The notes beneath the pieces are model-generated. The model saw only the letters and a list, made by a program, of their open reading frames with translations. It had not been told where the DNA came from and searched no databases. Of a stretch of 64,000 nt of DNA, positions 56,531-64,000 are shown in pieces. Position 1 is the first letter of the stretch; every line of letters begins with the position of its first letter. This DNA comes from Planctomycetia bacterium (GTDB lineage: Bacteria; Planctomycetota; Planctomycetia; Pirellulales; Pirellulaceae): positions 5,110 through 69,109 of the forward strand of contig JANODD010000147.1 in the NCBI GenBank assembly GCA_031412515.1. Reading direction: 5' to 3'. Position numbers and translations under genes: made by a program.

Positions 56531-56834
56531 CCCCTGTGAGCCGACGGCGCTAGCCATAACCCCTGTGAGCCGACGGCACTAGCCTTAACCCCTGTGAGCC
56601 GACGGCACTAGCCTTAACCCCTGTGAGCCGATGGCACTAGCCGCGGGTGAACGAAGTGGTTAACTTCACATCATCCACTGACTGCCATATGCCGAACGAT
56701 TCTCAAGACTATGAACCATCTGAACATACGACTATGAGCAAAAAATAACTTTGGTGAGACATTAACTTTCGAGTGATAGTCGAACGATCAAAGCGGCTGA
56801 CTTCGTTCACCCGCGGCTAGCGCCAACGGCTCAC
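56524..56834. repeat. REP-like family A inverted pair; left arm amplified to four 29-bp copies
   Basis: GCC(A/T)TAACCCCTGTGAGCCGA(C/T)GGC(G/A)CTA at 56524, 56553, 56582, 56611; inverted copy at 56800-56834. Confidence 0.92.
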
Positions 56835-59800
56835 TACTACGCGCTCGCGAAGCGGTTTCATTTAAGATCCGTTTCAGCACATCCGGTTGTATCGGCTTGG
56901 TTAGCCAACCGTCCATGCCCGCACTTAAGCACTTTTCAAGCGTACCGTCGAGCGCATGCGCGGTCATCGCATAGATAGGTACACGGCTCAGGCCGTTTTC
57001 GAATTCGCGAATAGCACTGGTTGCCTCAAGTCCATCCATTCCTGGCATTTCAAGATCCATGAAGATCAGATCGAAATCAGTTTGTCGATAGAACTCGATT
57101 GCTTCGGCGCCGGAACTCGCTACAGAACAGGTGTGACCAAGTATCTCGAGGATTCCAACAGCCACTTCTTGGTTTACCATCGCGTCGTCGGCAACGAGTA
57201 TTTTCAGTGGCTTTCGTGCTGACTGATTTTCGTTTCCAATGCGTGAACCTTGGGCATTCATGCCGAGTATGATCGCAACGAGTTCACGCGTCACAACGGG
57301 TTTCAAGAGACAATTTGTCGGATCGATATCGAGTTGGCTGACAAGCGAATCGGGCGAGTCGGGAGGCAATAAGGCAATCATGTTGAATGCCTTCATCAGA
57401 TCAACTTGCGACGAGAGAAGCCTCAGCGATTCGACGTCAACTCCGGCATCCAATATGATTATCTTTCGAGCTGTGTCAGTATTGTCTTGCTGGATTGCCT
57501 CCAGTGCATGCTCGGGAGACGAAAATCCGAAACAAGTCGCTCCAATGGACTCTAAGCCGATGGAGTACGAAGCTAGTGCGCTTTGAACTTGCGAGACGAG
57601 GTAGACCCTGAAATCTTTTAGCGATTGGCACACAACTTGTTTTTCTAGAGTTGCGATGAATGGGATTGCAACGTGGAAGATACTTCCTTTTCCAACTTCG
57701 CTTTCGACCCAGATTTTTCCGCCCATTAAGTCCACCAGCTCGGAAGTAATCGTCAGGCCGAGTCCTGTGCCTCCAAAGCGCCGCGTGGTCGAAGAATCGT
57801 TCTGCTGGAAGGATTCAAAAATGGCTTTATGGCGATCAGCAGGGATACCGGGTCCTGTGTCGTGAACGGCGATGTGCAACAATGGACTGGCCGTCGAGCC
57901 GTCGAGAAACGCGTGTAACCTGACTTCACCGTGATCGGTAAATTTGATTGCGTTGCCCACGAGGTTCACTGCGATTTGCCGTAAGCGTCCTGGGTCACCA
58001 TAAATGACGTCCGGGATGCTGGAATCGATGTTGCAGAGCAACTCCACTTTTTTATCGGCTGCATTGACGGACATTAGCTTTGTAGCATCCTCCAAAATTT
58101 CGGCAGGCGATATGGGAATATGCTCAAGCTCCATCTTGCCTGCTTCGACTTTGGAGAGGTCCAAGATGTCGTTGAGAAGGCCTAGCAGTGCATCGCCAGA
58201 GTTTTTAACAACATTGAGGTAGTTGCGCTGCTTTGCAGAAGGTCCAGACCGTAACGCCAAATCGGTCATTCCCAGAATTCCGTTCATTGGTGTTCGAATC
58301 TCGTGGCTCATAACCGCTAAGAAACGACTCTTCGCGGCATTCGCTGCTTCAGCGGCTTCTTTGGCTTCACGCAGTTGTTGTTGAGTTTGAATCAGTTCCG
58401 CTGCCGCTTGCTCAAGTTCCCTATTGGTTTTAACCAACTCATTGGCGCGAGCATGCGCAGTCGCAACCCCTTCAGCGACCCGTTCTTCAAGAGTTTCATT
58501 TAGCTTGGTCAATTGCCCGAAGCCGGCAGCATTCTCCAATGCGGCGCCAGCGATCGTCGCCACAAAGTCGGCAAGACGCTCCTCGTCGGCACCGAACATG
58601 TTTTGAACCTGGCTGTGCGTAACGCATAGGCAAGCTACCGTGCGTTCACGAAGTTTGATGGGAACACAAATTCCAGAACGAGAGTTTATATCGATGCTAT
58701 TTTGAGAATTTGACGAAGCCGAATCGATTTGGTCCGCCATCGAAATTGCACGACCGGCTTCTAAAGCAGCCTTTACAAGTCGCTTGTTAAAAGAATCTAA
58801 ATTCGAATCGGTCAGCGGAGCGCGGCCTTGCGCATCCAATTCAATCAAGACGCATGCTTCACCGCGTAGCAATCGAAAAGCAGCCCCTCGGGCCTCTTCA
58901 AAGATGAGGCTTGGTGTCAATGCGGAAGCGATTTGACGACCAGACTCGAGCACTCCATCAAACCGGTCTGCTAGTGAAAGGGATGTAGATTGACTAATTC
59001 CCATTCCCAGTGGATTCAGATCCTCGAGACGCGTTGTAATATGCTGCATCTCAAGTGCGTGTTCGTCTACGCCAGGAAGTTCCATCCACTTGGACAAACT
59101 AATCAGTTCTTTTAACGACTTCGAAAGCTCAAAGATCGCATCCTGTTCACGGGCAATCTTAGCACTCAAGGTCAAATGCTTGATGGCTGATTGCGTTCGT
59201 CCTTGGATGTTGTCGATAATCGCCAGCTCACGATAGGCACGAGGTAGGTCATTCTGACACAGTTTCGATTGACGTATCGCCAGCAGGGCCGCCCGCCGTC
59301 CGGCCTTGAGCGCTGCCCGAGTGGATTCGTTCGAATGAGCATGTGCACGAAGGGCTTGTTGTCGATATGCGGTCGCTAACCACGCCGATGCAGGAAGTGT
59401 GTAAGCGTTATGAATCCCGGATTTTCGCGCGATCGAATAAGCTTTCTTAAGTTCATCGATGGCTGAGGTCCAATTAGACTGATTGATGAAATCAATTCCT
59501 GCGGCAATGTGGACTTGGATTCTTCCTTGAGTATCGTTGCGGTGACGCTGGACTTCCTTTTGCAACAGTTGAGGTGGCAACGGAGATCGAACGGCGCGGG
59601 CCCAGACGTCCAATATGATTCCTGATGCTTGTTCATCGCCTAATTCAAGGCCTGATTCGCTATTGCGTCTTGACTCGACAATCGCTTGCTCAAATCGCCC
59701 TTGGTGGTACAGTGACGCAGCGACTTGATAGCGAGAAATGTGCACTTGCCAGTAATCGCCGGTTCGTTCCAACAAACGAATGGACTCGCGCCCTTTCTGA

Positions 59801-62709: not shown

Positions 62710-63019
62710 AGCGGTTCATTGCTCGGTAATGAGGAGGTCATGTTCTTACGGCCATGTGGAAAATACGATCCAGATAAACATAGCTCGTAAGTACATGTCG
62801 TGAGTTGGCAAGAGTCCGCCGCCTGGCATGTTCAAAAGTGCACTCTACGTGGGTGATTAAATTAGAAAATCCGTTTCAACCGGAGCCGAGCTTCCGACAG
62901 ATTGGGTGTTTTTCAAGCGAATTGAATTGCGGCAAACCACACGCATGTCTAGAAAGTACGCAGTTGCCCCAAGTTGTAGAAAAACGCGTTACTGTTTCGA
63001 TTCGACTTAGGAGTTCTTC

Positions 63020-64000
63020 ATGCTGAAGTCTGTTAACCCAGTGGCTGTCTATCGGCTAGATGCAAAGTTCCTCGCAGGGATAGAAGAGTTCAAGCTGGCG
63101 CTGATTGCACTTGAACTAGAGATACCACACGACCGCGTCCCTGTTATTGGGGATACGTATCACAAGCGAACGCTCGAGGCGTTCCATAAATCTGTTGCTA
63201 TTTGCAAAGATTATGAGCAGGAAATAGGAGACGATAAAGCGTTCTTAACGCAAGTGCAGGAGTATTTTCGAACGGAGACCGACCCGTGGATGCGGCAAAG
63301 CTGGATTGGCAACCGAGCTCGTGCCAAGCCAAGCGGTTTCGCTGGTGATTTTGAAATGCTTATCAAGCTCTACGAGGAAACGACTCCTGCGACAGGCTTG
63401 GGAGGCTACCTTGACCTGTGCATTCTTGACCTTCCCCTTGCTCGAGCTGTTCGCAGTCGGCTGGCTGCTGCACGATCTTACTTGCTGAAAGAAATTGATC
63501 GCCGAGGGACAAGCGTTCGCATATTGGATATAGCGAGTGGTCCGTGCCGCGAGTATATCGATTGGCCGTGTCTTCAAAGTGACAAGCCAATTGAAGTAGT
63601 CGCGCTCGACAATGATCCGATCGCCATTGAATACGTCCAGAAGAATATTGCTGCCAAACTGGACGGTGCCACGAAGCTAAACGTAGTGCGTTACAACGCG
63701 CTTCGGACCCGTAACGCGAAAGCGACTGTCGAGAGGTTCGGACGGTTTGATATTATTTATAGTGTCGGACTGTTTGATTATCTCACTGACGAACACCTCA
63801 TTGGTATGTTCAGCGGACTGCGAGAATCGCTCACCGACAACGGATCGCTGTACATCGCGTTTAAGGATACACAGCGATACGAAAAGACTCCCTATCAGTG
63901 GCATCTGGATTGGTTCTTCTACCAGAGAACGGAGCAGGACGTTTTTGAGCTCTACCGAATGGCTGGATTTGATGTGAGTGGTATTCAGACGACTCGCGAT
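63020..64000 (+). CDS. Class I SAM-dependent methyltransferase, PhcB-like; partial, runs off the window; not in the ORF track
   Basis: AGGAG RBS then ATG at 63020; 327 open codons containing KPSGFAGDFEM, ARAVRSR, RILDIASGPCRE, ALDND, FDIIYSVGLFDYL, LDWFFYQR. Confidence 0.85.
   Translation, partial: MLKSVNPVAVYRLDAKFLAGIEEFKLALIALELEIPHDRVPVIGDTYHKRTLEAFHKSVAICKDYEQEIGDDKAFLTQVQEYFRTETDPWMRQSWIGNRARAKPSGFAGDFEMLIKLYEETTPATGLGGYLDLCILDLPLARAVRSRLAAARSYLLKEIDRRGTSVRILDIASGPCREYIDWPCLQSDKPIEVVALDNDPIAIEYVQKNIAAKLDGATKLNVVRYNALRTRNAKATVERFGRFDIIYSVGLFDYLTDEHLIGMFSGLRESLTDNGSLYIAFKDTQRYEKTPYQWHLDWFFYQRTEQDVFELYRMAGFDVSGIQTTRD

Follow-up and report, generated by a model that had tools for sequence, protein, structure and literature searches.

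Diffusible signal factor (DSF) signalling in Xanthomonas involves the crotonase RpfF as synthase, the membrane-bound hybrid kinase RpfC with a fused Hpt domain, and the REC-HD-GYP regulator RpfG, which lowers cyclic di-GMP (c-di-GMP). Multidomain kinases include the HstK-type dual Ser/Thr-histidine kinases of cyanobacteria and STK-AAA-TPR proteins such as PknK of Mycobacterium tuberculosis, and we know of no ligand for HstK-type or PknK-like proteins. Methyl-ester signalling of the Phc type has, to our knowledge, been studied in Ralstonia and Cupriavidus only. Its enzyme PhcB, accepted as the synthase of methyl 3-hydroxymyristate and methyl 3-hydroxypalmitate, is termed a (putative) methyltransferase (PMC5462968, PMC11960443). 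Here, we analysed a 64,000-nt stretch of DNA (the window; positions 5110-69109 of contig JANODD010000147.1, C147) from the 8.9-Mb, 417-contig genome assembly of a Planctomycetia bacterium, in which the gene for a predicted class I S-adenosylmethionine (SAM) methyltransferase with remote homology to PhcB lies head to head with that of a giant sensor kinase. This pairing is conserved in other genomes of the same class, analogous enzymes take the place of the methyltransferase beside related kinases, and the locus probably encodes a system, not described before, in which a lipid signal would control c-di-GMP.

A methyltransferase gene in a four-gene block

The original prediction had drawn attention to an open reading frame (ORF) that was absent from the ORF list supplied with the window, that carried five motifs, and that faced a 1973-aa sensor across a 310-bp gap. 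This ORF starts with an ATG at position 63020, has a GGAG 8 nt upstream and stays open through the end of the window. When followed on the contig, as had been proposed, it runs to a stop at position 69238 of C147, which lies 129 bp past the window end and corresponds to window position 64129, and encodes a protein of 369 aa. Each of the five motifs (KPSGFAGDFEM, RAVRSR, DIASGP, SVGLFDYL and LDWFFYQR) was found in its translation, and the ORF coordinates bear out the head-to-head layout. A search of 5.8 billion proteins returned 353 close homologues, 35 of which were aligned and showed a mean column identity of 53%; those among the 353 that carry a name all stem from planctomycetes (Pirellulaceae, Planctomycetaceae and Bremerella). 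Because of these conserved homologues and the confident AlphaFold model described below, we regard the methyltransferase gene as real.

Beyond the window, the contig continues with two genes on the opposite strand, of which the first, encoding a REC-HD-GYP regulator, is convergent with the methyltransferase gene and overlaps its end by 13 nt, and the second encodes an Hpt protein. Together, the genes of the giant kinase, the methyltransferase, the REC-HD-GYP regulator and the Hpt protein form an 8.8-kb four-gene block (Table 1). The HDIGK and GSGYP motifs are intact in the REC-HD-GYP sequence, and by its domains and motifs this protein is a predicted c-di-GMP phosphodiesterase of the RpfG type. 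The divergent intergenic region was scanned for promoters and terminators and none were found, including no match to a sigma-70-like promoter. Conservation of this region with the closest relative, the only one for which the alignment was informative, was limited to the ~70 bp preceding the methyltransferase start.

The methyltransferase as a remote homologue of PhcB

Reference PhcB sequences were located via a Cupriavidus PhaC query (confirmed at 98% identity), and six Cupriavidus and Ralstonia genomes were searched. The R. solanacearum complex was not represented among 80 PhaC loci, and an exact-match scan for the R. solanacearum diagnostic primer 759 gave no match. The best match to the planctomycete methyltransferase in each of these six genomes was an ORF of 463-467 aa, which in the two genomes whose flanks were read (Cupriavidus sp. 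UYPR2.512 and R. mannitolilytica) was followed by a membrane histidine kinase, a receiver-kinase and a receiver protein, corresponding to the phcBSRQ operon. BLASTP against Cupriavidus PhcB gave 22% identity over 284 residues (E 4e-12), and the reverse search with PhcB against the source genome returned the methyltransferase gene as sole match, making the two proteins reciprocal best genome hits. Moreover, hhalign comparison of a profile of 35 methyltransferase family members with a profile of the six PhcB proteins yielded a probability of 99.5% (E 3e-23) over 311 columns, nearly the whole protein, with residues 15-332 aligning to PhcB residues 131-455. The homology thus spans an N-terminal helical cap and the Rossmann core, and extends into the C-terminal strands.

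PhcB, the methyltransferase family under study (referred to as MT1), a second family described below (MT2) and nearly all of 122 full-length representatives have in common the superfamily signature [KW]PxGYxGD[YF]xx[LI]Ex[IL]Y, located ahead of the SAM-binding motif. Both KPSGFAGDFEMLIKLY and GLFDY are present in the methyltransferase, the latter after the SAM-binding motif and in common with PhcB. The superfamily comprises ~3,051 clusters at 50% identity, with members that are either short (about 320-380 aa) or long (about 450-490 aa). The assignment to a PhcB-like family that had been made from motifs, and for which a profile comparison had been proposed, was therefore upheld as far as membership of the superfamily is concerned, and on these alignments the methyltransferase is genuinely, if remotely, homologous to PhcB. 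Orthology to PhcB (KEGG K19620) did not hold up: with 22% identity, a distant position in the tree and the absence of the N-terminal ~130 residues of PhcB (369 aa versus 464-467 aa, the alignment beginning at PhcB residue ~131-150), the protein is to be read as a remote paralogue. Many of the 353 homologues are labelled by JGI with the KEGG name phcB, so that the identification of the enzyme is itself not new, public pipelines having already named its relatives.

Family databases were less informative. All Pfam matches of the methyltransferase to class I methyltransferases lay below threshold, NCBIfam holds no PhcB model, and the N-terminal parts of PhcB and of the methyltransferase matched no Pfam family, PilZ included. 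Methyltransf_20 (PF12147) was considered as a family model for PhcB and discarded, the methyltransferase falling just under its cut-off and the Cupriavidus and Ralstonia PhcB proteins giving no match.

The methyltransferase locus contains no phcS, phcR or phcQ gene, its neighbours being those of the giant kinase, REC-HD-GYP regulator and Hpt protein, and searches of the source genome for the PhcS membrane domain and the PhcQ C-terminus gave no match. A different family in the Planctomycetota carries near-full-length homologues of PhcB (L124 in genome G148, E 4e-128; L133 in genome G167, E 9e-121). In both loci the PhcB homologue is followed by a PhcS homologue with membrane domain, and these PhcB proteins group within the PhcB clade. 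Because of these pairs, a classical phcB-phcS system can be said to exist in the Planctomycetota apart from the giant-kinase module.

Among distant superfamily members (25-27% identity), those on a Roseateles plasmid (L002, NZ_CP084754.1) and a Pseudanabaena plasmid (L003, NC_019690.1) lie between diguanylate cyclase/phosphodiesterase genes, or convergent with genes for a HAMP histidine kinase and a response regulator. The PhcB superfamily as a whole seems to keep company with signalling genes.

The AlphaFold model of the methyltransferase, built from the 35-sequence alignment (pLDDT 89, pTM 0.84), comprises seven N-terminal helices forming a cap, a Rossmann core and a disordered tail. A relative of solved structure could not be detected by sequence, profile searches included. 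With Foldseek, the top PDB match of the model was 3ocj, an uncharacterised Bordetella protein (TM 0.51/0.61), followed by the natural-product small-molecule methyltransferases SgvM, the CurJ C-methyltransferase and Plu4890.

Conserved linkage of the methyltransferase and the kinase

A synteny survey, which the original prediction had suggested, was carried out on 401 species genomes of the same class, a sample of a larger class, with a threshold of E<=1e-30 for the enzyme. The methyltransferase was found in 24 of the 401 genomes and in 12 of 202 genera. It was paired head to head with a kinase orthologue in 21 of 22 assessable loci (23 fetched), and this pairing persisted in five or more families, at enzyme identities as low as 37% and with differing flanks. 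In most surveyed loci, REC-HD-GYP and Hpt genes lay within 20 kb of the enzyme gene. The sole unpaired locus (L155 in genome G402) holds a second methyltransferase copy, the first copy of that genome being kinase-paired. Around this solitary copy, no kinase, Hpt, HD-GYP or FadL gene was seen within 20 kb.

The same linkage emerged from assembly contigs carrying seven homologues at 86% to 50% identity, six of which showed the identical four-gene arrangement: the giant kinase on the minus strand, the methyltransferase on the plus strand, then the REC-HD-GYP and Hpt genes on the minus strand. A Bremerella strain is among the carriers of the full block. Even the closest relatives have no flanking genes in common, which makes the four-gene block the conserved unit. 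The differing flanks in all close relatives also hint that this block is mobile. In the relative with the closest block, whose enzyme is 86% identical, a run of phage head and tail genes together with an integrase-like gene begins ~1.3 kb beyond the Hpt gene (L096:13814-21110). Two further observations each concern a single relative: a PF00756 esterase gene is inserted between the methyltransferase and REC-HD-GYP genes at L103:11517-12827, and a gene for a 794-aa 3-hydroxyacyl-CoA dehydrogenase adjoins the kinase gene at L101:1255-3639. The two products are enzymes of lipid or ester metabolism.

A FadL/Toluene_X channel gene (PF03349) adjoins the block in five of the seven assembly loci, and its position varies in the wider survey. 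In the window, the corresponding position directly past the 3′ end of the kinase gene is occupied by a 393-aa ORF (55349-56530, plus strand) with a signal-peptide-like N-terminus, whose product looks unlike a beta-barrel.

Other enzymes beside the same kinase family

Kinase orthologues were collected with a query spanning the central 1,100 kinase residues (E<1e-170; ORFs of about 1,900-2,250 aa) and occurred in about 51 of the 401 genomes, including all 24 with the methyltransferase. For the kinases without an MT1 enzyme, 24 of 27 loci were fetched, one of them on a contig too short to judge. At five of these 24 loci, the kinase gene is adjoined by a gene for a second, divergent PhcB-like methyltransferase (MT2; 337-342 aa, 28% identical to the methyltransferase of the source genome). 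At 13 loci, it is adjoined, either head to head or immediately downstream, by a gene for a 470-570-aa fusion protein that combines an LCM (PF04072)/TIGR00027 carboxyl-methyltransferase domain (Pfam E 1e-23 to 1e-28, above cut-off) with a YiiD_C/DUF4442-like hotdog domain resembling thioesterases, the latter scoring at or near cut-off and weakly in most fusion members. This hotdog/LCM fusion is absent from the source genome. At one further locus (L169:10091-17620, genome G545), a 2,509-aa reducing type I polyketide synthase (PKS; KS-AT-DH-ER-KR-ACP-TE) is encoded on the same strand and ends 1 bp before the kinase gene. Taken over both sets, a methyltransferase of one of the three types stands beside the kinase in roughly 40 of 45 assessable loci, with the PKS at one more.

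All trees were built with FastTree. Enzyme type was strongly clustered on the tree of 51 kinases, which required six changes compared with a mean of 20.8 after shuffling, a value that no shuffle out of 200 reached. A clade with the hotdog-LCM fusion nests inside a clade of MT1-paired kinases, which implies replacement of one enzyme by another. An in-situ cassette swap between congeners was considered and rejected, the flanks being unshared and the modules lying in different contexts.

Architecture of the giant kinase

Pfam places Pkinase, AAA_16, TPR, GAF, HisKA, HATPase_c and Response_reg domains in this order along the kinase (Table 1). In the Ser/Thr-kinase-like domain, the motifs are degenerate, with HRN in place of HRD and GCG in place of DFG, and they are likewise degenerate in most orthologues. 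Because the catalytic and Mg-binding aspartates are missing, this domain is probably a catalytically dead pseudokinase scaffold. The AAA_16 module has intact Walker A (GDGGCGKS) and Walker B (VFLDD) motifs, and is followed by a stretch (residues 700-1265) that AlphaFold modelled as an all-helical solenoid (pLDDT 83, pTM 0.80) whose Foldseek matches are TPR superhelices. By domain content, the protein thus has a STAND NTPase with a putative TPR sensor of the MalT/PknK-like kind. Residues 840-1050 are the best-conserved non-catalytic part of the kinase in the conservation profile, and the modelled solenoid is a candidate sensor that may bind a ligand or a partner. The GAF domain, poorly conserved across the orthologues, is an alternative candidate for a small-molecule site.

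The C-terminal part (residues 1445-1959) matches BarA/TorS-type hybrid kinases in NCBIfam, the BarA model reaching E 2e-120 and staying under its equivalog cut-off. Its domains are those of a hybrid histidine kinase phosphorelay of the BarA/TorS type, with the predicted Hpt partner encoded separately and close by. The sole strongly hydrophobic stretch, at residues ~825-852 (Kyte-Doolittle 2.05), was considered as a membrane anchor and rejected, being a helix of the modelled TPR solenoid. For this reason, the kinase is predicted to be soluble and devoid of a transmembrane input domain, as the original prediction had noted.

Table 1. Features of the four-gene block and domains of the giant kinase, in window coordinates unless a contig is given.
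Feature	Position	Strand	Remarks
PhcB-superfamily class I SAM methyltransferase, predicted (MT1, short form)	63020..64000	+	codons 1-327 of 369 in window
Giant multidomain sensor kinase, predicted soluble, 1973 aa	56788..62709	-	Pfam and NCBIfam domains
Divergent intergenic region between kinase and methyltransferase start codons	62710..63019	.	310 bp
REC-HD-GYP regulator, 375 aa	C147:69226-70353, outside window	-	Response_reg E 4e-22, HD_5 E 1e-29 (Pfam)
Hpt protein, 125 aa, with HKVRG	C147:70346-70723, just outside window	-	overlaps REC-HD-GYP gene start
Ser/Thr-kinase-like domain, aa 36-272	61894..62604	-	Pfam Pkinase E 8e-27
AAA_16 STAND-type NTPase module, aa 316-478	61276..61764	-	Pfam E 3e-10
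TPR-like all-helical solenoid, aa ~700-1250	58960..60612	-	AlphaFold, Foldseek
GAF domain, aa 1269-1391	58537..58905	-	Pfam GAF E 8e-07
Histidine kinase core, HisKA (H-box SHEIRTP) and HATPase_c, aa 1459-1684	57658..58335	-	Pfam E 2e-19, 1e-27
C-terminal receiver, aa 1837-1949	56863..57201	-	Pfam Response_reg E 2e-25

A proposed lipid-signal mechanism and its alternatives

Homology to PhcB, the domain make-up of the kinase, the conserved linkage and the replacement by analogous enzymes are observations. The nature of the product, its role as a signal, the domain that binds it and the direction of phosphotransfer are what we infer from them. In the mechanism that we propose, the cytoplasmic PhcB-superfamily enzyme would convert a lipid carboxylate, or an acid derived from a thioester, to a lipophilic molecule of the methyl ester type. 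This product would be the ligand of the adjacent soluble kinase and would be bound in the cytoplasm by its STAND/TPR or GAF part, with the FadL-type channel encoded in many relatives aiding its passage across the outer membrane. The ligand state would in turn set the autophosphorylation of the kinase histidine, and phosphate would then pass from the kinase receiver to the Hpt protein and on to the REC-HD-GYP regulator, altering c-di-GMP hydrolysis. We put this mechanism forward tentatively, as having slightly less than an even chance of being correct.

A ligand of the lipid methyl-ester type is suggested by the finding that MT2, the hotdog/LCM fusion or a PKS takes the place of the enzyme, because these replacements would either release acyl chains from thioesters and methylate carboxyls, or build fatty-acid-like chains. 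FadL channels, for their part, carry hydrophobic molecules. FadL has also been found to modulate extracellular long-chain N-acyl-homoserine lactone signals (PMC9938287).

Several observations weigh against the proposed mechanism. The MT1 family branches far from the PhcB clade in the FastTree phylogeny, and with 22% identity the transfer of a substrate from PhcB is weak. At four of the 24 MT1-free loci, no recognisable enzyme was found near the kinase, so that the kinase can exist without a linked maker. Three other species of the genus to which the source genome belongs lack MT1, two of them having the hotdog-LCM version and the third having neither MT1 nor the kinase. Scanning the kinase in sliding windows for a region whose divergence follows enzyme type gave no localised signal, the FadL orthologue of the source genome (88% identical to that of a relative) lies off-locus on contig C193, and TPR solenoids bind peptides or proteins more often than lipids.

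The main alternative is that the kinase senses an imported hydrophobic compound, such as a fatty acid entering via FadL, and that the methyltransferase modifies, inactivates or detoxifies this compound by esterification, leading to adaptation or quenching. FadL-type channels indeed accompany the kinase with or without the methyltransferase, certain kinase loci have no enzyme, and the esterase inserted in one relative's block would fit a cycle of making and breaking an ester. However, PhcB, the only characterised homologue, is a maker of signals (PMC5462968), and the thioesterase fusion and the complete PKS would build from thioesters instead of modifying imports, so that we consider such ligand modification unlikely. 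The methyltransferase might also be an effector of the pathway, for instance in the tailoring of membrane lipids or secondary metabolites, that is co-regulated with the kinase or physically regulated by it and whose product is not the kinase ligand. Shared regulation is frequent in divergent gene pairs, and the pseudokinase and TPR scaffolds of the kinase could dock an enzyme. This explanation nevertheless accounts poorly for three unrelated ester- or lipid-making enzymes in one slot beside one kinase family, and the only recognisable output of the module is c-di-GMP hydrolysis, with no DNA-binding protein in it; it strikes us as rather improbable.

Methylation of a protein carboxyl, on the kinase or a partner, in the manner of CheR on chemoreceptors or LCMT on PP2A, would find support in the large scaffolding domains of the kinase and in the LCM family of the replacing enzyme, the founder of which methylates a carboxyl group of a protein. 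Set against this, small molecules are what PhcB homologues produce (PMC5462968), the LCM domain comes as a fusion with a hotdog domain resembling thioesterases, one locus has a PKS in its place, the nearest folds of the methyltransferase are those of small-molecule methyltransferases, and neither Pfam nor NCBIfam gave a CheR family match for it, which makes protein methylation quite improbable. Finally, the adjacency of enzyme and kinase might simply be inherited gene order without functional link, every locus coming from one class of one phylum. Yet the pairing is kept at 37-57% protein identity over several families with flanks that differ even in the closest relatives, and the slot has been refilled by analogous enzymes, leaving hardly any room for chance inheritance.

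Novelty and implications

In the collection of papers searched, none combined PhcB with planctomycetes, in line with the original prediction, whose author knew of no described signalling of this kind in the phylum. Similarly, none of the records returned by a quorum-sensing query described a planctomycete cell-to-cell system with an identified synthase and receptor. What appear to be new are the STAND/TPR/GAF hybrid kinase, predicted to be soluble, as the partner of the enzyme, the c-di-GMP output, and the way in which non-homologous enzymes stand in for one another next to kinases of a single family. A broader hypothesis, which we consider doubtful, is that the STAND/TPR/GAF hybrid kinases of Pirellula-like planctomycetes would be cytoplasmic receptors of self-made lipid ester autoinducers, with a modular synthase slot and an output running from Hpt via HD-GYP to c-di-GMP.

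If this were true, the swapped PhcB-like, hotdog/carboxyl-methyltransferase and PKS synthases could represent chemical "dialects", even inside one genus, and the phylum would have its first described system of the quorum-sensing type, with a new class of receptor for lipid signals. Lipid-ester signalling would then reach well beyond the Betaproteobacteria, and lipid signals would be readable inside the cell by a STAND-type kinase instead of a membrane receptor. The presence of two unrelated methyltransferase types and a PKS at one kinase family links to a single function several families of enzymes that are poorly understood, and the swapping of enzyme types beside that family provides natural controls. 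With one small enzyme, a predicted soluble receptor and a c-di-GMP output that is measurable in principle, the locus is a compact candidate for testing.

Comparison with known systems

The giant kinase resembles HstK-type proteins in uniting a Ser/Thr-kinase-like domain, a GAF domain and a histidine kinase core in one polypeptide, and PknK-like proteins in carrying a STAND ATPase and a TPR region. It differs from both in lacking the catalytic HRD and DFG aspartates and in being consistently paired with a predicted small-molecule enzyme. The logic of the proposed pathway is that of Xanthomonas DSF signalling, where a diffusible signal derived from fatty acids likewise acts through the phosphorelay of a hybrid kinase on a REC-HD-GYP regulator that lowers c-di-GMP; homology of the sensors is not claimed. 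The parts differ, with the crotonase RpfF there and a methyltransferase here, and with the membrane-bound RpfC and its fused Hpt domain there and a predicted soluble kinase with a separate Hpt protein here.

The Phc system of Ralstonia and Cupriavidus shares with the planctomycete locus a homologous enzyme, with the same cap, Rossmann core and signature, encoded beside two-component genes. In the Phc system, however, the sensor is the polytopic membrane kinase PhcS, the output is control of PhcA and the genes form one operon, whereas the planctomycete methyltransferase stands divergent from a 1973-aa STAND/TPR/GAF hybrid kinase that is predicted to be soluble, in a module whose output would run through a REC-HD-GYP regulator.

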